A stretch of DNA of 64,000 nucleotides from Candidatus Aenigmatarchaeota archaeon (lineage in GTDB: Archaea; Aenigmatarchaeota; Aenigmatarchaeia; JACPZZ01): contig JACPAF010000001.1 of assembly GCA_016180965.1 (NCBI GenBank), positions 223,513-287,512 of the forward strand. The letters are read 5' to 3'. The notes beneath the pieces are model-generated. The model was not told the origin of the DNA, did not search any database, and saw only the letters and a program-made list of their open reading frames with translations. Shown here in pieces: positions 4,815-55,782 of the stretch. A program made the position numbers and the translations under genes. Position 1 is the first letter of the stretch. Every line of letters starts with the position of its first letter.

Positions 4815-5931
4815 ATGTCAATATTGGAGTCGGTTTTGAGTCGTGGGGCAACAGGCCACGGAAATGCGGAATCCGGAGTTACTATGAAAAACTTCGATTA
4901 CGAAAAGATAACTGAGCAGGAATTTGGCTTTAGCATGAAACGCGCCAGGATCGTTGTCGTTGGATGCGGTGGAGGCGGAACAAACTCTATCAACCGATTG
5001 GCAGAAATGGGCGTTGAAGGCGCAACCACAGTTGCGTTGAACACAGATGCAAAGCATTTGGCGGTCATAAAATCTGACAAGAAGATTTTGATTGGAAAAG
5101 AACTAACGCGCGGTTTGGGAGCAGGCGGTTACCCAGAGATCGGAAAGAAAGCGGCAGAGGAAAGCCGCACACAATTGAAAGAGTCGCTCACCGGCGCAGA
5201 CTTAGTTTTCTTAACAGCAGGGATGGGCGGAGGGACAGGAACAGGTTCCGCGCCTGTGGTTTCAGAGATAGCGAAGGAGATGGGTGCGATCGTTATCGGA
5301 GTTGTAACGATGCCTTTCAAGATTGAAGGCGCACGTATCGTAAAAGCTGAGAACGGTCTCGGAAAATTACGCGAAGCTTGCGACACAGTCATTGTCATTG
5401 AAAACGACAAGCTGTTAGAATTTGCAGGCGACTTGCCAATACAACAGGCTTTCGCTGTTGCAGACGAATTGATTGCGGGAATGGTCAAAGGCATAACCGA
5501 GACAATAACATTGCCGTCGTTGGTCAATTTGGACTACGCTGACGTGAAGGCGATAATGCATTCCGGCGGCGTTGCGGCGATTGGACTTGGATTTTCAAAC
5601 AGCTCTGACCGTGCTCGCGATGCGGTTACAAAAGCATTGCCCGTTGTTAGAAGTTGATTACCAAGGCGCTTCAGGCGCGTTGATACACATAACAGGCGGG
5701 CCAGACCTCAAATTGTCCGAAGTTAACCAGATAGGCGCAATAGTTTCGTCGCATTTGGATCCTTCGGCACAGGTTATCTGGGGCGCGCGAGTACAACCGG
5801 ATTTCCATGGCAAGGTCCAGGTAATAACAATAATAACAGGTGTGAACAGCCCGTACATACTCGGCCAGGTGCACAGAGAGGCTTCCCCGGCCTTGGGAAT
5901 AAGCGAGCTTGGCATAGACAAGATTGCGTAA
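4815..5931 (+). CDS. ftsZ: cell division GTPase FtsZ with apparent +1 frameshift at the C3 run 5640-5642
   Basis: GGAGGGGAA Shine-Dalgarno before ATG 4815. Tubulin signature GGGTGTG and T7-loop region run in frame 0 up to 5657. The C-terminal PLLEVDYQGASGALIHITGG...VITIITG continues in frame +1 (track ORF 5572-5931). Removing one C restores ...AVTKALPLLEVDYQ.... Confidence 0.85.
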
Positions 5932-6468: not shown

Positions 6469-6690
6469 ATGGGCGAGACTCAGTCGACGGTAAAGAAATG
6501 GGGATCTTCGCTAGGTGTTGTTATACCTATCGAGGTTGTGAAACAGAAAGGTTTGCGTGAAGGAGATACGGTGGTGCTGGAGATAAGCAAAAAGAACACG
6601 ATCCGAGAGATCTTCGGATCCTTGAAGCATAACAAGTTAGACTCCCAAAAAATCAAAGATAATCTTAGAAAGGAGTGGAGCAAATGGTAA
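6469..6690 (+). CDS. vapB: antitoxin VapB (AbrB/MazE/SpoVT swapped-hairpin domain)
   Basis: KKWGSSLGVVIPIEVVKQKGLREGDTVVLEI is a typical SpoVT/AbrB fold. Overlaps the downstream PIN gene. Confidence 0.65.
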   Translation: MGETQSTVKKWGSSLGVVIPIEVVKQKGLREGDTVVLEISKKNTIREIFGSLKHNKLDSQKIKDNLRKEWSKW

Positions 6691-7049
6691 GGTTTTTTCT
6701 GGATACGTTTGCCATGTTTGAAATAACTAATGGAAATCCAAGATATGAAAAATACCTTAATTATGATTTTTCTACGTCAATGCAAAACCTCTACGAACTT
6801 TACTATAATTTATTGAAAACCAACGGCGAGGATTTCGCAAGGAATTGTTTTAATCGTTTCAGGCATTTCGTTGTCCAGATAAATGATTTGCATATATTCA
6901 ATGCCTCCAAGTTTAGGCTTGACAATTCGAGGCTAAATTTATCTTATGTCGATGCATTAGGTTATGCCATCGCAAAGGAAGAAGAGATCAAATTCCTTAC
7001 GGGCGATAAAGCCTTCAGAAATATGGATAACGTGGAATTTGTGCGCTAG
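6684..7049 (+). CDS. vapC: PIN-domain toxin VapC
   Basis: MVRFFLDTFAM (first acidic residue), LSYVDALGYAIAKEEEIKFLTGDKAFRNM (third and fourth Asp). Start could also be ATG 6675. Overlaps the vapB stop. Confidence 0.65.
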   Translation: MVRFFLDTFAMFEITNGNPRYEKYLNYDFSTSMQNLYELYYNLLKTNGEDFARNCFNRFRHFVVQINDLHIFNASKFRLDNSRLNLSYVDALGYAIAKEEEIKFLTGDKAFRNMDNVEFVR

Positions 7050-7504
7050 TTCAGATTTTTTAGAACTATGGCCAACGAGAGCGAAGCCCCAAATATAAAA
7101 CCGAAGAACATGCCGGATGCCAGCCAGATGAAATTGTTTGTCGAAAGATAGACTAAAATAAATCCGAACAGGACCGCTGCTATGTACGTCGGAAGCTCGT
7201 GACCGATTTTTTTATTTAGCATTTTTAGTCTTTGTTTCTGCTTTGTTTTGACGCTGTAGAATTTGCGGTAGAAGTTCCAGTTCCTGGAGAATATATGATG
7301 CCAATAAGCGCCGAAGAAAAAACCTACGGATATGCCGAGAAGAAAACCGGAGTAGATGCGCTCACCGGCTTCCGGATATAACGAAATTGCTTTTATGAAG
7401 AACAATGCGGCTATTACGGCGGTTAAAGCGTTAGCTCCGGGAGTCATGGTCCAGATAAAATTTTCGTGGTGAAGGATTCTGTGGATTTTGCGTACCAGGT
7501 CCAT
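7046..7504 (-). CDS. hypothetical integral membrane protein
   Basis: 152 aa with four predicted TM helices. No recognisable motif. Confidence 0.4.
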   Translation of the reverse strand: MDLVRKIHRILHHENFIWTMTPGANALTAVIAALFFIKAISLYPEAGERIYSGFLLGISVGFFFGAYWHHIFSRNWNFYRKFYSVKTKQKQRLKMLNKKIGHELPTYIAAVLFGFILVYLSTNNFIWLASGMFFGFIFGASLSLAIVLKNLN

Positions 7505-11225: not shown

Positions 11226-11975
11226 TTATTTTTCTATTTTTTCCATCAAAGCCTCCATTTTTTCAACGAACCGTGTCGCCTTTTCAACCATCTCGTCGAT
11301 TTTTTCCGGCGTGACGAGCTTCAGTTCACCGTGTTCCAGTTTTTTCCACGTCTTGATGACGTCTTCGTAATATTTTACGTATTCCGGCGACAATTTCCTT
11401 TTTCGTACGAAATGTATTCGCAACTGGTCAGGGACATTTTTTGGCGTCGGCGGCGACACGCCGATGCTTAACAGCGGAGCTTGCGCCGCGTCCACGACTG
11501 CGGACGACAATGCGTCCATTATTGAGATTGTGTGGATACGTTCTATGCGCAACAAACGCAAAGGCGATTGCTGTATCAAGGATTTCATAGCCTCTTTCGT
11601 TCCGGGCACGCGGCCTTCGAGCAATAATTTTTTCAGCGGTAAAAAGAATCCTGACGGGTCGTATATCGGAATGCCGTCGCGTATTTCCGTGAACGTGACC
11701 GGAGAACCGTGCCGGATGAGTTCCCAATAATCCGATAGTTTGTAAAATATCAAGTCAGTTTCGCCGCGCAGTTTTAGCAGCTTGGAGATTTTTTGCGCTT
11801 CCAGTTTTATTTCGTTGGTTGTGATTGAGTCAACTTGGTTGGTGTCGTCGAGAAGGAATATCAACGTGTCCTCTTTTCCCTCTTCGGAGGACGAAGTCAT
11901 CCAGATAGACTTTATTATGGTGGGATATTTTTTCGTTAATTTATCGATCAGTGATTTTGTTTTTTTCGTGTTCAT
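11226..11975 (-). CDS. nucleotidyltransferase-fold protein, catalytically degenerate paralog of the upstream gene
   Basis: Aligns along its length with 11972-13120 (IYDPSGFF..LLEGR..PLRLLR..HGELK). The hG[GS]...DhD motif is replaced by MTSSSEEGKEDTLIF. Start overlaps the upstream gene's stop (ATGA). Confidence 0.55.
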   Translation of the reverse strand: MNTKKTKSLIDKLTKKYPTIIKSIWMTSSSEEGKEDTLIFLLDDTNQVDSITTNEIKLEAQKISKLLKLRGETDLIFYKLSDYWELIRHGSPVTFTEIRDGIPIYDPSGFFLPLKKLLLEGRVPGTKEAMKSLIQQSPLRLLRIERIHTISIMDALSSAVVDAAQAPLLSIGVSPPTPKNVPDQLRIHFVRKRKLSPEYVKYYEDVIKTWKKLEHGELKLVTPEKIDEMVEKATRFVEKMEALMEKIEK

Positions 11976-13120
11976 TTTTTAGCCTCTTTCAACAACGATT
12001 CCAAATTCTTGGCATACAGGCGCGACGTGTAAACGTCTTTTTCGGTCACTTCGTTTAATTTGTCATTGTCGGATGCGTGCTTCATCAATTTTATTTTTTT
12101 CAGCAGTTCCAAATAGCCTTTCGACACCAGGCCCGTGTTAACCAACTCTTTTTCAACAAAATGCAGGATGTTTTTATCATTTACTCGTATTCCACGTTTT
12201 TTCAGTATGTTCCTGCAGGCTGTGAACGCCACATCATTGGATTCTTCGATCATTTCCTTTTTCTTTTCTTTTTCCAGCATGGAAAAAATCGTGTCCATCA
12301 TGTAGATGAAATCTTTTGCTTTCACAATCCAGGAATCGATTTCTTTCGCTGTTATTTTTGTCAATTCCCCATGGTCGATTTTTCTTGTCACTGCGTAAAA
12401 TTCATCCACCAAGTCGGCGTAAAATCCTGGAAGTATTTTTTTTGCGACGAAATTTTTTCGCAGCGCCGCGCCGACGTTTTTTGCGGACGGCGGCGCAATT
12501 CCATAGAACATCAATACCGCCTGCCCGGCTTCGACCATTGCGAAAAGCAAATCTGCGGTTATGTCTTCCAGGAATATTTTCCTGACGTCTTCCAGGCGCA
12601 GAGGCGCGCGCTGCATCAACATTTGCGACCTTTCAAATGTGCCGCCCATGCGACCTTCTTTTAATAATCTGCTTAACGGCTCTACATAACCTGATGGATC
12701 ATACACGGGCATCGCGTCGCGCATTGATGTGAATACCCACGGCTCGCCTGAGCGCAGCAAATCCCACCAATCTGTTAACCTGCGAACGGGCTGGAAATGT
12801 ATATTGATTTTTGTTTTTTCCTTTACAGCATCGTTTATTTCGGATATTTTTGCGCTCATTGCGGATAATTCAGCAGCGGATATATCCGTCGTGGCATCGT
12901 CGACCAAAGTCATTACGTCGATGTCCGATGTCGGTTTTGCTTCGCCGCGGGCGAATGAACCGTATAACCAGATAACCTTTATCTTATTTCCGTATATTGA
13001 AAGTATTTTAGAACAAGCCTCTTTGATGGCGTCGATAGCGGAATATGCCATAATCAATAATGAATGACGGGATTTTAATACCTGAGCAAGAAACCCGCGG
13101 GCATCGCCTGATTGAAGCAT
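11972..13120 (-). CDS. Pol-beta-superfamily minimal nucleotidyltransferase with conserved helical C-terminal domain
   Basis: VIWLYGSFARGEAKPTSDIDVMTLVDD is a canonical GS...DxD NTase motif. 382 aa. The N-terminal 23 codons overlap the hairpin at 13114-13136, so the true start may be ATG 13051. Confidence 0.6.
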   Translation of the reverse strand: MLQSGDARGFLAQVLKSRHSLLIMAYSAIDAIKEACSKILSIYGNKIKVIWLYGSFARGEAKPTSDIDVMTLVDDATTDISAAELSAMSAKISEINDAVKEKTKINIHFQPVRRLTDWWDLLRSGEPWVFTSMRDAMPVYDPSGYVEPLSRLLKEGRMGGTFERSQMLMQRAPLRLEDVRKIFLEDITADLLFAMVEAGQAVLMFYGIAPPSAKNVGAALRKNFVAKKILPGFYADLVDEFYAVTRKIDHGELTKITAKEIDSWIVKAKDFIYMMDTIFSMLEKEKKKEMIEESNDVAFTACRNILKKRGIRVNDKNILHFVEKELVNTGLVSKGYLELLKKIKLMKHASDNDKLNEVTEKDVYTSRLYAKNLESLLKEAKK

Positions 13121-13136
13121 ATCAAAGGTATGCTTC
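13114..13136 (+). repeat. hairpin GAAGCATA-tcaaagg-TATGCTTC followed by TAACTCC; family member
   Basis: 8 bp perfect stem. Overlaps the annotated 5' end of the minus-strand NTase ORF. Confidence 0.4.
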
Positions 13137-13140
13137 TAAC

Positions 13141-14523
13141 TCCTTACCGCCCGCCAGATGAATTGCACACAGTTACTATTATTCCATGTTAACTATATTT
13201 TTCTATAGGAACCTCACATAAAGGGTGTTTTAAGTGCACATTCGAAAAGTATTGATTCATGAAAGAATCGAAAAATAATATCAGAATGTACCGTTATAGA
13301 ATATACCCTTCTCAAGAACAACGTAAAAGGCTTGATTCTCAACTCGCATCATGTAAAGAATTATACAACCTGCTTCTTCAAAAATGTAAAGAAGATTACA
13401 AGGAAAAAAGCATTTCCGTAAACCGAAAAATGCTCTACAAACTTGCCAAACAATTCACAGACAATGATGAACGTTATTCAGACGTACATTCCCAGGTCCT
13501 CCAAAACGTAGCTGACAGACTAGTAAAATCTTACAAAAACTATTTTAGGCGTATTAAAGAAAAGAAATCCGGCAAGAAGATAAAAGTCGGCTTTCCTAGA
13601 TTCAAAAAATTCTATTCAAGCATAACCTATCCGCAGAGCGGGTTTAATCTAGCCGCGAATCGTCTTTTTGCTTCGAGGATAGGCAATATTCCCATCGTAA
13701 CCGAAAGATTGCCTCAAGGAAAGACAAAAACACTAACAATCAGAAGAAAACCGTCGGGCAAGTGGTTTGTTTTTTTCAGTTCGTTTGTTGATACTCCTGA
13801 GACCGAAAACACAGTTAAATACAACAAAATCGGCATAGACATGGGCATTGAAAACTTCGCAACTTTATCGGACGGCACAACAATAGAAAATCCGAGATTC
13901 CTAAGAAAATCGGAAGACACGCTAGCAAAATACCAGCGCAGAGTGTCCAGAAAAGCGAAAGGTTCTAACAGAATAAAAGCAAAAATAAAAGTTGCGAGAA
14001 TACACGAAAAAATAACCAACCAAAGAACAGATTTCCTTCACAAAACAAGTAAAATGCTGACGGAAAAATACAGCTTCATAGCTGTTGAAAAACTAAATGT
14101 CAGTAACATGGTAAAGAACCATAATCTAGCGAAAAGCATATCCGATGCTTCGTGGAACCAATTCACTCGGATGATTGGCTACAAGGCTTCAAGTGCTGGT
14201 TGCCAACTCGTTTTTGTGAATCCACGAAACACATCGCAAATATGCAGCGGATGCGGAAACACAGTAAAGAAAGAATTAAGCGACAGGTGGCACGAATGCG
14301 ATTTATGCGGTTTGTCGCTGCACAGAGACCACAATTCCGCATTGGAAATATTAGACAAAGCCACCGACGGACTGTCGGGAAGTAACGCCTTTGGAGACAG
14401 TGTAAGACCTTCTGTAAAGAAGGTCGTGGTCGATGAATCAGGAACTACACGTGTTGAGATAGACGCTGGAAACCCAGCACTTTAGTGCGGGGAGGATGTC
14501 ATTAATGTGCAAGCTTTTATCCG
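13141..14523 (+). mobile_element. IS200/IS605-family element carrying tnpB only (IS1341-like); ends not defined
   Basis: Single tnpB gene without tnpA, flanked by about 120 nt upstream and about 40 nt downstream of non-coding DNA. Boundaries were placed at the flanking genes. Confidence 0.4.
13259..14485 (+). CDS. tnpB: TnpB (IS605 OrfB, RuvC-like RNA-guided endonuclease)
   Basis: 408 aa. MYRYRIYPSQEQ N-terminus, RuvC-I GIDMGIENFATL, RuvC-II IAVEKLNVSNM, zinc finger CSGCG...CDLCG, RuvC-III RDHNSALEI. Confidence 0.9.
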   Translation: MKESKNNIRMYRYRIYPSQEQRKRLDSQLASCKELYNLLLQKCKEDYKEKSISVNRKMLYKLAKQFTDNDERYSDVHSQVLQNVADRLVKSYKNYFRRIKEKKSGKKIKVGFPRFKKFYSSITYPQSGFNLAANRLFASRIGNIPIVTERLPQGKTKTLTIRRKPSGKWFVFFSSFVDTPETENTVKYNKIGIDMGIENFATLSDGTTIENPRFLRKSEDTLAKYQRRVSRKAKGSNRIKAKIKVARIHEKITNQRTDFLHKTSKMLTEKYSFIAVEKLNVSNMVKNHNLAKSISDASWNQFTRMIGYKASSAGCQLVFVNPRNTSQICSGCGNTVKKELSDRWHECDLCGLSLHRDHNSALEILDKATDGLSGSNAFGDSVRPSVKKVVVDESGTTRVEIDAGNPAL

Positions 14524-14556
14524 TTGGAAGAGAAAAATATAATCAGTGTTTATGCT

Positions 14557-15168
14557 ATGGTAACTCCCAAAAGCGCTGCAGATAAATACGAACAGATAGA
14601 CCGACTGACGCGCACTGGAGTTTCTGTTCTAGGAAAACAGATGAGTCCGACAGCTGCGATAACATCTGCGGGAGATTCTTACACACAGGCCAATACACTT
14701 TTTGGCGGCCTCACAGCCCCGAAAAGAGGAAAAGACCAGGTTGCAGGATTGAAGGATGCTATTGTAGGTTATGCGCGAACAGCGATGCGTACACGGGTTG
14801 AAGATGTCTACAAAAAAATGGGCGATGCAAGTTATACGATTGACCGAAGAGGTTCCGAGTTACGAGGTTCCGGCATTTTAAGTTTCAAACCCGGCGCCGG
14901 CCCATTCAAAGCCTTAGCAATTGGGCGACCTTCGCCTGAAAAGGCATTGCGTTCAGTCGGCGATGCGCAAACATATGCAACTGAATCCAAAGGTTATGTT
15001 AAAGATGTTTTCAGCGCTTTCAACGCTACAGGTCTGACAGAAACCGGAGACAGGGAATTCAAAAAGGATCTCGAAAAAAGACTGGCCGATGCTGAAAAGA
15101 AGATCGGTGAAAAGAAGGCAGACCTTTGGGGAGCTGAAAGACGGAAATCGATTCGCAGGGGATATTGA
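14557..15168 (+). CDS. paralog family protein 5 (unknown function; ends ...IRRGY)
   Basis: RRGSELRGSGILSFKPG core and DLEKRLADAEKKI match paralog 3 (ESERKGPMRILPRSS, ELEKRLGNIASSL). The TTG at 14524 is in frame with ATG 14557. Confidence 0.55.
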   Translation: MVTPKSAADKYEQIDRLTRTGVSVLGKQMSPTAAITSAGDSYTQANTLFGGLTAPKRGKDQVAGLKDAIVGYARTAMRTRVEDVYKKMGDASYTIDRRGSELRGSGILSFKPGAGPFKALAIGRPSPEKALRSVGDAQTYATESKGYVKDVFSAFNATGLTETGDREFKKDLEKRLADAEKKIGEKKADLWGAERRKSIRRGY

Positions 15169-35615: not shown

Positions 35616-35915
35616 ATGAAGCGCAAGGGTATCTCTTTACCAATAGACATGCTCGTTATCTTGGCGATAGCTGTCATTATTCTAATTGCTGTTGTGGCTG
35701 TTTTCATGGGCGTATGGAGTCCTTTTGCGACGAACCAACAGGCAAGGGCGAATTTCAACAAAGAATGCCAGGTTTTAGTTAATACGGGCTGTACGCAAAC
35801 TCCTTCGCTGGCGTTATGCAAAGCGGCTAATGGGATTGTTTTGAACAAAGAAACTTGCGATAGTGATCCAGACAGACTTGCGGTCAAGAAAGGATGCGGC
35901 TGCCCGGGATTGTGA
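35616..35915 (+). CDS. type IV pilin (candidate major pilin), C-terminal GCGCPG
   Basis: MKRKGISLPIDMLVILAIAVIILIAVVAVFMGVW...KKGCGCPGL. Tandem paralog of the next gene. Confidence 0.65.
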   Translation: MKRKGISLPIDMLVILAIAVIILIAVVAVFMGVWSPFATNQQARANFNKECQVLVNTGCTQTPSLALCKAANGIVLNKETCDSDPDRLAVKKGCGCPGL

Positions 35916-35919
35916 TCTT

Positions 35920-36315
35920 ATGGTTAAAAGAAAAGGTATTTCGCTCCCAATTGATATGTTAGTTGTTTTGGCAATCGCTGTCATAATTTTAATCGCGATC
36001 GTTGCCGTTTTCATGGGTGTCTGGAATCCATTTTCGACGAACCAGCAATCACGGGCGAATTTCAACAAGGCTTGCCAGATATTAGTCAACACCGGCTGCG
36101 CAGGAGATCCGTCAGTGGATTTGTGCAAAGCTGCGAATGGAATTGTTTTGAATAAGGACACTTGCGATAGTGATCCGGATAAACTTGCGGTTAAAGTCGG
36201 GTGCGGCTGTCCGGGCGTTTCCGGAACAACGGCAACTGCTCCGCCGGCTGGTGACAGTGGTTCTCCAGGCGCACCGGGTCCGGGAGATGTGGGTGACAGC
36301 GGGCCTTCTAGATAA
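35920..36315 (+). CDS. type IV pilin paralog with Gly/Ser/Pro-rich C-terminal tail
   Basis: MVKRKGISLPIDMLVVLAIAVIILIAIVAVFMGVW...VGCGCPGVSGTTATAPPAGDSGSPGAPGPG. Confidence 0.65.
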   Translation: MVKRKGISLPIDMLVVLAIAVIILIAIVAVFMGVWNPFSTNQQSRANFNKACQILVNTGCAGDPSVDLCKAANGIVLNKDTCDSDPDKLAVKVGCGCPGVSGTTATAPPAGDSGSPGAPGPGDVGDSGPSR

Positions 36316-44276: not shown

Positions 44277-45195
44277 CTAGTTACCCGTTAGCCACGAACT
44301 TAACGTTTTGCGATTTCCCGGGGATTTTTTCTTAATGTTTTCAAGAACTTTTTCCACGCGCTCCTCGGAGAATGAATGCTCGGCGATCATCATGTTTTTT
44401 ATCCCTTCTTCGTTTGGTTTTGACCACCTTATCTCGTAGTTGTCTTCTACTGGTGGTTTGAGGAAAAAATCCAAGACCATTTGGGGGTCGTACGGGCTGA
44501 AATCTATTTCCATGAATATTTCGTCCGCACTTTTTGTGCGGACCAGTTGCAGCGCTTTTTTCGGCCCTATTCCTTTGATACCGCCGGGATTGAAATCTGT
44601 GCCGACCAGAATACCCAGCACGATTAATTTTTCCTGGGTCAGGCCGAGAGAGTTTAAATTTTTCCCCAATTCTATCATCTCCGGCTTCACTTCAATATAA
44701 GTTTCCTTGTTCGGCAGCTTTTTTCTTCCCGTTATTGTTAAATTCCGTACGAGTCTTGGAGACCCGAATAGGAGGGAATCGTAATCCTGCGACCCGGTCG
44801 CGAATGCGTCTCCGCGCTTTGTCATGTGTGCGGCCTGCGCTTCGGCTTCGCTCGGCGCCTGCATTATTGGAATTCCCATCAATTCAAGCAATTTTTTGGA
44901 TTCGGATACCATGTCCTTTGTCAATCTTGACGTTTTTGAATGCCGGCGGCTTGCCATCGAAAACGAAGATTGGCATTAGCCCGGCTTCGACAAATTTGGA
45001 AGTGCGGTAAAACAATCCGGACAGGTGCGAGGTTACGCGCCCGGCAGAATCCATTAAGGGGGTCCCATCGGGCTGCCTTATACTTGATAAAAACTGATAC
45101 AGTGTGTTGTAAGCGTCAATCGCTATCGTCTTGTTAACCAGGTTATCCAGTTCTATTTGTGTACGTTCCATTATGTTCGATATTTGTACGCCCAT
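44277..45195 (-). CDS. fen1: flap endonuclease FEN-1, disrupted: internal loss of the helical-cap segment and a frameshift at a 5-nt A/T run
   Basis: N-terminal [36 protein letters not shown]...[12 protein letters not shown] runs in one frame (track ORF 44884-45273). ...[32 protein letters not shown]...[11 protein letters not shown] continues in another (44277-44957). Only about 6 aa separate FDGKPP from LTKDMV, versus about 45 in M. jannaschii FEN-1. Confidence 0.8.
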
Positions 45196-45281
45196 TGAAC
45201 CACCTTGATTTTGTATTATGCCAAACCGGTTTATAAGCCCCATCACGTGCGGGATATTAAAAAGCCAGCACAAGTTATATT

Positions 45282-46088
45282 ATGGCGATACCGGCGGCAA
45301 AAAAGAAATTCGACGACACGGTACGCGCGCCGTCGCTAAACTCCATACTCATTTTCAGCGTAATTGCCATAACATTCTTTTCCACTTTCCTTGTCTCAAA
45401 ATTGGACAACACAAGGGTTGACGATGCCCTTTATTGGACGCTGTGTTCGATAACAAGCGCCAACTGTTTTGTCAGCCAGCAATTTTATTACCTTCCGGTC
45501 GTCAGGATATTTTCAGTTATAAATGGGATTGCGTTTATAGTTATTATATCGTTTTTGTCTGCCAATATTGTGGACAGGCTTGGACGAGTGGACCTGAGGG
45601 GAAACAGTTTGAGAAAAAAACTTGAAGATTTGAAAGACCATTTTATTATCTGCGGTTATGGGAGGGTGGGCGAAAAGATATCCAGCGTTATGAGATCGCA
45701 CGGCATTTCTTTTGTAATAGTCGATAAGGATCCTGAAACTATCAAGGAATTGAACGAGTTAGGAGGATTGACGGTCGAAGGCAACGCACTCGATCCGCGC
45801 GTCCTGGAGCGGGCGGGCATAAAACGTGCTCGCGGCCTGATAGCGGTTTTGAACACGGATTCCGATAATATTTCTCTGGTATTGACGGCCAACGATATTA
45901 ATCCTAACATACTCATCGGCGCGCGCGCCGATTCTGAGGCTGCGATTAGAAGATTGCATCGCGCAGGCGCGGAAATTGTTGTTTTGCCCGAGATAGTTGG
46001 CGGTTTGCAGTTGGCCAAGGAGGTTCTTGAACTGGAGGAAGTTGAAGAACATGACCTGGTTAGCAGGAAAAAATTCAAGCAGGAATGA
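45282..46088 (+). CDS. 2-TM pore-like domain fused to an RCK/TrkA-N NAD-binding domain (MthK-like channel architecture, degenerate selectivity filter)
   Basis: HFIICGYGRVGEKIS Rossmann motif. N-terminal two TM helices with ALYWTLCSITSANCF where potassium channels have TVGYGD. Confidence 0.55.
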   Translation: MAIPAAKKKFDDTVRAPSLNSILIFSVIAITFFSTFLVSKLDNTRVDDALYWTLCSITSANCFVSQQFYYLPVVRIFSVINGIAFIVIISFLSANIVDRLGRVDLRGNSLRKKLEDLKDHFIICGYGRVGEKISSVMRSHGISFVIVDKDPETIKELNELGGLTVEGNALDPRVLERAGIKRARGLIAVLNTDSDNISLVLTANDINPNILIGARADSEAAIRRLHRAGAEIVVLPEIVGGLQLAKEVLELEEVEEHDLVSRKKFKQE

Positions 46089-54459: not shown

Positions 54460-55782
54460 ATGGTTTTGGACAAGCTCGGAGAGTCGTTATCAAACGCCCT
54501 AAGAAAAATAGCGGGCAGGGGTTTTGTAGACAAGGCTGTCGTAGATGAATTTATCCGAGATTTGCAGCGCGCTTTGCTGCAGGCTGACGTGGATGTGAAA
54601 TTGGTATCTACGCTTTCAAATAAAATACGCGACAAAGTTTTGAACGAGAAGCCTGCGTCTGGGATTACGGTTAAAGAGCACATGATAAAAACCGTTTATG
54701 ACGAGCTGGTAATTTTTTTGGGCCGCGAAACCGGGTCTGTGGAGTTAAAAAAACAAAAAATACTTTTAGTAGGATTGTACGGGTCCGGTAAAACGACGAG
54801 TTCTGCGAAGCTTGCTAAATTTTTCGTCCGCAAGGGTTTGAAGCCTGCTTTGGTGGGCTGCGACACGTTCCGGCCTGCGGCACAAGAACAGATAATACAA
54901 CTCGGAAGCCAGATTGGCGTGCCTGTTTATGCGCAAGGCAGCGACCCTTCCAAAACCGCCGAGGAAGCGATAAAAAAATTTCCGGAAAGGGATGTAATAA
55001 TCTTCGATTCCGCTGGTCGCAATGCGTTGGATGTTGAATTGGCCGATGAATTGAAAAGATTAAAAGATTCTGTGAAACCGGATGAAATTTTTTTGGTGAT
55101 ACCGGCCGAAATGGGGCAGGCTGCGGGCAAGCAATCTGAGGAGTTTGCAAAGCTTGTGGGCATAACAGGCGTTATAGTTACGAAAATGGACGGCACTGCC
55201 AAAGGAGGCGCCGCACTCAGCTCCTGTGCGATTGTAAATGCGCCGATAAAATTTATCGGTGTCGGGGAGAAAGTTGACGAGTTCGAAAATTACGACCCGA
55301 AACGTTTTGTTTCGCGTTTGATAGGTTACGGCGATTTGCAAAGCCTCGTGGAAAAGGCGGAGGAAATCAAGTCGCCTGAACTTATGAAATCCGCCGAAAA
55401 TATGATGAGCGGTAAATATTCTTTACAGGATTTTTACGAGCAGATCGAATCAATAAAGAAAATGGGGCCTTTGAAGCAGGTGATGCAGATGATACCTGGG
55501 CTCAAGTTGCCGGATGGCATGTTGGATGTACAGGAAAAGCAGATGGCAAAATGGAAAATTGCGATGGAATCAATGACAAAAAAGGAAAAGTCGGATCCGT
55601 CGATTATCGATAATAGCAGGATAAAAAGAATAGCGTCGGGAAGCGGTTTGAAAGACGACGATGTGAAAGAACTGATAAAACATTATGACCGCACGAAAAA
55701 AATGATGAAGATGATGGGCGGGAAAAATTTGAAGCGCGGGGGCTTTGCCCAATTAGCGAAACAGTTTGGAATGAAGATGTGA
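54460..55782 (+). CDS. srp54: signal recognition particle protein SRP54
   Basis: ILLVGLYGSGKTTSSAKLA, DTFRPAA, DSAGR, TKMDGTAKGG, plus a Met-rich M domain. Confidence 0.95.
   Translation: MVLDKLGESLSNALRKIAGRGFVDKAVVDEFIRDLQRALLQADVDVKLVSTLSNKIRDKVLNEKPASGITVKEHMIKTVYDELVIFLGRETGSVELKKQKILLVGLYGSGKTTSSAKLAKFFVRKGLKPALVGCDTFRPAAQEQIIQLGSQIGVPVYAQGSDPSKTAEEAIKKFPERDVIIFDSAGRNALDVELADELKRLKDSVKPDEIFLVIPAEMGQAAGKQSEEFAKLVGITGVIVTKMDGTAKGGAALSSCAIVNAPIKFIGVGEKVDEFENYDPKRFVSRLIGYGDLQSLVEKAEEIKSPELMKSAENMMSGKYSLQDFYEQIESIKKMGPLKQVMQMIPGLKLPDGMLDVQEKQMAKWKIAMESMTKKEKSDPSIIDNSRIKRIASGSGLKDDDVKELIKHYDRTKKMMKMMGGKNLKRGGFAQLAKQFGMKM

Follow-up and report, generated by a model that had tools for sequence, protein, structure and literature searches.

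Archaeal flap endonuclease-1 (FEN-1), represented by the family model TIGR03674 and by the Pyrococcus furiosus enzyme (1b43), combines XPG_N and XPG_I regions, metal-binding acidic residues, an H3TH motif, and a PCNA-binding LxSW(L/F) tail. It is expected to be encoded in a single uninterrupted reading frame and to possess a helical arch, formed by helices alpha4 and alpha5, that carries a conserved Lys and a conserved Arg. In human FEN1, the reaction is approximately 2000-fold slower with K93A, approximately 7000-fold slower with R100A, and 3000- to 15000-fold slower when a single cap residue is replaced by proline (PMC3837164). The Rad2/XPG nucleases that lack a full cap, GEN1 among them, have the same nuclease core fold; their cap over the active site is reduced or absent. 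Specifically, GEN1 lacks only helix alpha5, keeps alpha4 with its basic residues, and has a chromodomain (PMC5039027). Frameshifted pseudogenes and assembly lesions in MAGs provide a further comparison: there, a conserved gene is present as two overlapping ORFs and has no protein record. The fen1 gene described here belongs in this last company. What we see is either a gene that is broken or a lesion of the assembly, rather than a novel enzyme without an arch.

The window, by which we mean the entire 64,000-nt stretch of Aenigmarchaeota MAG DNA that was analyzed, carries fen1 on the minus strand at 45195..44277. The first-pass annotation of this DNA had placed the N-terminal and C-terminal parts of the gene in different frames, and this is indeed the arrangement. 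The N-terminal ORF starts at ATG 45195 and stops at 44884, the C-terminal ORF spans 44957..44277, and the two overlap at 44884-44957 with an offset of +1. Thus, fen1 occupies two ORFs. A run of five Ts, five As on the coding strand, lies at 44933-44937. The closest homologue is P0001, an Aenigmarchaeota orthologue encoded at locus L001, with 90% identity over aligned columns. The locus has the following features:

45200..45204, minus strand: Shine-Dalgarno-like GGTGG 5' of the fen1 start codon, in the upstream sequence AAGGTGGTTCA before the ATG
44929..45195, minus strand: 5' part of fen1 in the original frame, codons 1-89 (MGVQ...), with the XPG_N domain; it matches XPG_N and is collinear with P0001 and L001 through Asn-Val
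44928..44933, minus strand: deletion junction, at which 107 nt of the relatives are absent, from a 107-column gap in the DNA alignment and a comparison of codons
44884..44928, minus strand: out-of-frame tail of the 5' part, 14 residues and a stop, which is downstream coding sequence misread (three-frame translation)
44277..44933, minus strand: 3' part of fen1 in the +1 frame, from TSRLTKDMV... to the stop, with XPG_I (domain match), the H3TH motif, and the C-terminal LxSWL
44934..44957, minus strand: fortuitous 5' extension of the downstream ORF (MASRRHSK), which is the FDGKPPAFK codons out of frame, its ATG coming from GAT GGC

Both nuclease regions are recognizable in Pfam searches, with XPG_N scoring 69.5 bits (cut-off 22) and XPG_I scoring 92.2 bits (cut-off 24.9). 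It had been suggested at first pass that removal of one A/T yields an in-frame protein. Translation confirms this: dropping one A from the A5 run gives a 305-aa ORF, and this is the frame-joined sequence used throughout. Against TIGR03674 (cut-off 351.95), this sequence reaches 413.8 bits, in two separate stretches. Similarly, it matches 1b43 (E = 1.2e-110) in two stretches, query residues 1-94 aligning to chain residues 1-94 and query residues 83-302 to chain residues 119-338, a mutual offset of 36 residues. Analogous to archaeal FEN-1, window fen1 has XPG_N and XPG_I, the acidic residues, the H3TH motif, and the tail. Unlike archaeal FEN-1, it has no equivalents of 1b43 positions 88-123, the helical arch, and it contains a +1 frameshift. 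All seven metal-binding acidic residues tested (D27, D80, E116, E118, D137, D139, and D200, the equivalents of human D34, D86, E158, E160, D179, D181, and D233) are kept. Their columns are invariant in a 14-sequence alignment, and in a 65-sequence alignment six are invariant and D139 is nearly so. The conserved Lys, K87 (equivalent to human K93), is kept as well, the H3TH motif is conserved, and the putative PCNA-binding tail reads TLSSWL, with L298, S300, and W301 in invariant columns. The conserved Arg equivalent to human R100, a column with at least 90% conservation across the 65 aligned sequences, falls in the window gap. Over 222 aa, the 3' part aligns in one frame with the L001 product, at 88.7% amino-acid identity. 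The 14-residue out-of-frame tail has no counterpart among the homologues aligned.

Relatives encode the complete enzyme. Among 5.8 billion proteins, the best 120 homologues are 338-358 aa in length, and 120 of 120 are full length. When the window is compared with 13 close homologues, 36 residues (NVTLEKREQIKSEAEKRLERSIEKGDLEEARKAAQA in P0001) are absent between AFK and TSRLTK; the first-pass annotation, which had already called the arch absent, put the loss at a similar 37-45 aa. The window shares with the P0001 and P0002 loci the gene order TrkA-like, fen1, PCMT, and IF-2B family, and L001 DNA is 84-86% identical to the window on both sides of fen1. No split or two-frame fen1 orthologue exists among the close relatives examined. 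Because these relatives have a full-length, arch-bearing fen1, the arch loss is, as judged by alignment, not lineage-wide; whether it might be had been asked at first pass, and both the best 120 homologues and the closest relatives answer in the negative.

Comparison of these loci also yielded observations on neighboring genes. The TrkA_N gene beside fen1 encodes 268 aa in the window, 267 aa in the related locus L002, and 298 aa in L001 (9069-9965). Its tblastn alignment (95% identity) passes the window stop codon (46086-46088) and continues to 46175, a stop-codon difference between close relatives. A CDP-alcohol phosphatidyltransferase is 139 aa as called in L001 (6200-6619); in L002 it has 206 aa, all of which find a match in the window. 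The L001 gene may be truncated or broken in that assembly. Finally, SRP54 of L002/L003 (1-722) is a 1048-aa protein with intein-splicing and LAGLIDADG domains, and SRP54 has no intein in the window (54460-55782, 440 aa) or in L001 (440 aa).

A single event accounts for the differences between window fen1 and its relatives. Specifically, when the window is aligned at the DNA level with L001 and L002, a single gap block appears. It spans exactly 107 nt, one base short of 36 codons (3n-1), and corresponds to L001 10316-10422. The codons of L001 are GCA TTC AAG AAC GTC ACG CTG ... GCC ACT TCA AGA TTG ACA, and those of the window are GCA TTC AAA AAC GTC AAG ATT GAC A. Past the A5 run, the window keeps the upstream frame AAC GTC (Asn-Val), as does its nearest relative (AFK-NV-TLEK). 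The window tracks the upstream flank of L001 through AAC GTC A and the downstream flank from TCA AGA TTG on. The junction sequence is AAAAACGTCAAGATTG, with the join written as AAAAACGTCA|AGATTG. With the N-terminal frame intact past the A5 run and a single 107-nt gap, the breakpoint must fall at 44928-44933, and not at the T5 run where the two frames had been thought to meet. The frame changes because the deletion length is 3n-1 and not because of a homopolymer indel; the previously proposed homopolymer error at A5/T5 thus gives way to one 107-nt deletion that explains both the arch loss and the frameshift. On present alignments, a single lesion underlies both the arch loss and the shift in frame. 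The junction overlaps both L001 flanks by TCA (44930-44928), or by ACGTCA if the ancestral Thr codon was ACG, so microhomology is certain only for TCA and its longer extent depends on the ancestor. In this respect, fen1 is unlike the frameshifted genes of other MAGs: its lesion is a 107-nt deletion with microhomology, not a one-base homopolymer indel.

Our best explanation is that an ordinary archaeal FEN-1 gene has undergone one 107-nt loss between short direct repeats (TCA, up to ACGTCA). Short direct repeats at the ends are the signature of replication slippage or of microhomology-mediated end joining. The deletion cuts out the helical arch in its entirety, that is, alpha4, alpha5, and with them the counterpart of human R100, and it also puts the downstream two thirds of fen1 in the +1 frame. 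As assembled, the normal start directs synthesis of 89 native residues followed by a 14-residue nonsense tail. The XPG_I part has no start signal of its own, and the allele is therefore null. We are highly confident that one deletion generated a null fen1 allele that is not lineage-wide.

Apart from the deletion, the gene is in good order. Measured against L001, fen1 dN/dS is 0.079, and that of 13 neighboring genes is 0.03-0.18. Polarized with L002 as the outgroup, 12 amino-acid changes are derived in the window lineage and 10 in that of L001. Thus, neither dN/dS nor the branch counts detect relaxed selection or a substitution excess in fen1. The rest of the gene shows no decay, which implies that the lesion is recent or is not biological. 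Elsewhere in the window, each of the 22 further genes that L001/L002 also possess is intact and occupies one frame.

Public annotation tells a consistent story. Four neighboring proteins are exact matches to GenBank MBI2085168-171, from a 'Candidatus Aenigmarchaeota archaeon' MAG, and the genes flanking fen1 have the consecutive accessions MBI2085169 and MBI2085170. Because these accessions are consecutive, fen1 has no GenBank protein record; the annotators either regarded it as a pseudogene or made no call. Between 8.3 and 41 kb, the increments of the GenBank locus tags match those of the accessions. An exact look-up of five possible fen1 fragment proteins found none on record, and no fen1 protein from the same MAG is present among the named homologue matches, all of which carry accessions of other series. 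A tblastn search of the window revealed no second FEN or XPG paralogue. What the window contains is a damaged copy of a familiar gene, one that public annotation has already left without a protein.

Window fen1 is not alone. Screening for same-strand overlapping ORFs revealed that ftsZ (window 4884-5931, plus strand), 39 kb from fen1, is frameshifted too, with its junction at 5639/5640. The ORF containing the Tubulin/FtsZ GTPase domain ends at 5657, and FtsZ_C lies in the +1 frame from 5572. The relatives L004 and L005 read TTGCAAAACCCG (TTG CAA AAC CCG) where the window reads TTGCCCG, a 5-nt deletion. The ftsZ protein is 98% identical to P0127. It too appears to lack a GenBank protein, as the ORF count fills MBI2085117 to MBI2085122 without ftsZ. 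Thus, with ftsZ as a second case, the window resembles other MAGs in which conserved genes are presented as two overlapping ORFs.

Other genes of the window can be mentioned here. A MazE-like antitoxin and PIN-domain toxin pair adjoins ftsZ (window 6469-7049, plus strand), and L004 has several such toxin–antitoxin pairs around ftsZ (6572-7251, 11636-12305, 12793-13373, and 14322-14962). A mobile element, an IS200/IS605-family TnpB gene (GenBank MBI2085133), is located at window 13259-14485 on the plus strand. Window 35703-35912 and 36010-36306, also on the plus strand, both match small adjacent L002 proteins (88 and 122 aa) with 71-84% identity, and are tandem paralogues of an uncharacterized small protein.

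The first-pass annotation listed a pseudogene among the possible outcomes. That fen1 is broken stands; pseudogene and assembly lesion both fit the evidence. We judge the chance that the 107-nt deletion is biologically real to be marginally better than even. The sampled population would then carry the deletion in its DNA through a recent mutation, and assembly would not have created it. The organism may tolerate loss of Fen1, with other 5' nucleases or RNase HII as backup, as in Thermococcus kodakarensis. We count in favor of a real deletion that Fen1 is individually dispensable in T. kodakarensis (PMC13136892).

A substantial possibility, if one that falls short of an even chance, is that the organism has intact fen1 and ftsZ, and that the 107-nt and 5-nt losses arose from assembly, curation, consensus calling, a minority variant, or chimeric reads. 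Two of approximately 80 window genes are broken, both by deletions, and both are strongly conserved core genes without relaxed selection; two fresh null housekeeping alleles with no other decay are also what consensus errors would be expected to produce. However, the 22 intact syntenic genes and the agreeing accession increments show the remaining window to be clean. Few-base microhomology at deletion ends is, moreover, typical of genuine mutation, and no exact repeat longer than 8 nt brackets the arch segment in relatives, which leaves collapse of a de Bruijn graph unexplained. Repeat collapse was considered as a cause and rejected, as relatives have only imperfect repeats around the arch, of 23 nt and 18 nt and 78% identical; the 23-nt repeat accounts for the overlapping BLAST segments. 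The earlier note proposed that full-length fen1 in close relatives, together with reads heterogeneous for an indel, would point to an assembly artefact. The half of this proposal that concerns relatives holds, as they do have full-length fen1.

Evidence from other assemblies also bears on an artefactual origin. Short N-terminal FEN-1 fragments with varied ends in the arch are frequent on long contigs of other archaeal assemblies, a further likeness between fen1 and the frameshifted genes of MAGs. Their frequency suggests that this A-rich region is error-prone in assemblies. Moreover, in SRR12113431 (Logan assembly) the same population is represented by contigs of just 0.9-2 kb, which fits low coverage or strain heterogeneity. 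In scans of stored genome and metagenome contigs, the exact junction and species-specific 29-36-mers had 0 matches, and no independent assembly of the same population covering fen1 was found. A homology search with the 103-aa N-terminal fragment for fragments from the same population (Logan, SRR12113431) returned a best identity of 68%, and the neighboring PCMT protein was not located on any stored contig.

The fragments merit description in their own right. They include P0270, P0276, P0282, P0287, P0292, P0317, P0335, and P0380, are 105-148 aa long, and sit on contigs of 14 to 783 kb. They possess nonsense tails, and their ends vary within the arch-coding region. Frameshifts seem to recur in the A-rich arch region, whether in assemblies or in nature.

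Could a functional enzyme be made from this locus? Taken together, the ways in which an arch-less or split protein might work have a slim chance of being correct, and a functional cap-less FEN-1 is unlikely. One hypothesis, which we hold to be very improbable, is that an in-frame 108-nt arch deletion combined with a one-base A5 error or with +1 slippage yields a cap-less FEN-1 (...AFKTSRLTK...). The 305-aa ORF restored by one A less, with all of its metal-binding acidic residues and K87 kept, lends this hypothesis some appeal. Furthermore, AlphaFold2 confidently predicts a FEN-1 core for the joined sequence (mean pLDDT 89.9, pTM 0.87); the model has a lower-confidence loop at the joint (residues 81-90, pLDDT 65) and only a loop at residues 80-92. 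However, two events are needed where one suffices. The AACGTCA that follows the A5 run is the upstream flank of the relative in its original frame, which would be a coincidence under the cap-less hypothesis but is expected under a 107-nt deletion. The arch is, moreover, present in every one of the best 120 homologues, and the Arg equivalent to human R100 is deleted. Slippage in transcription or translation usually needs a longer run than A5, and the motif does not match a known +1 shift site. Two forms of recoding were rejected. A -1 frameshift at C AAA AAC would enter the wrong frame, and this heptamer does not fit the X XXY YYZ pattern. A programmed +1 frameshift fails because the shift site and the two-frame layout are not conserved, all orthologues examined being single-frame and full length.

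More doubtful still is a two-piece FEN-1, in which a 103-aa N domain and an I domain of 211-226 aa would be separate polypeptides that assemble. Split genes are known from Nanoarchaeum and other DPANN archaea, and XPG has a long insert between its XPG_N and XPG_I regions. In window fen1, the break falls between the XPG_N and XPG_I regions, and ATG 44957 opens the downstream ORF while overlapping the end of the upstream ORF. That ATG, however, arises from out-of-frame reading of GAT GGC, which encodes the conserved Asp-Gly; its equivalent is present also in L001 (GAT GGA), and L002 has GAC GGG. No Shine-Dalgarno or TATA signal lies upstream of ATG 44957 or ATG 44912, unlike at genuine window starts, where GGTGA (GGTG-type) or TATA-like signals are present. 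Further arguments weigh against two pieces: a split gene occurs in no relative, in other lineages the truncated fragments differ in where they stop and have nonsense tails, two pieces would not restore the arch, and GenBank called no protein.

Finally, the view of fen1 as a cap-less, GEN1-like nuclease, also raised at first pass, is not supported: the halves are out of frame, the Arg and both arch helices are lost, and sequence and modelled fold are nearest archaeal FEN-1. Unlike GEN1, window fen1 lacks both arch helices and the conserved Arg, and Pfam identifies no extra domain. Its sequence matches GEN1 with E = 1e-17 and FEN-1 with E = 1e-110, and the best fold matches of the AlphaFold2 model are archaeal FEN-1, with XPG/Rad2 ranking far below them. 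The resemblance to GEN1 is superficial.

We caution that no claim of a cap-less nuclease should rest on window fen1, as the lineage has a normal FEN-1. The boldest reading, which we consider scarcely probable, joins a real deletion to a working arch-less FEN-1, made through +1 decoding at the junction or from two associating pieces; its milder version is a genuine, recently fixed null. If the bold version were true, nature would offer a 5' nuclease that works with neither an arch through which to thread the flap nor the R100-equivalent arginine. If the milder version were true, an episymbiotic DPANN archaeon could live without Fen1. Should the fen1 and ftsZ deletions prove to be fixed alleles, they would provide modest evidence that Fen1 is dispensable in this episymbiont lineage, as it is in T. 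kodakarensis.
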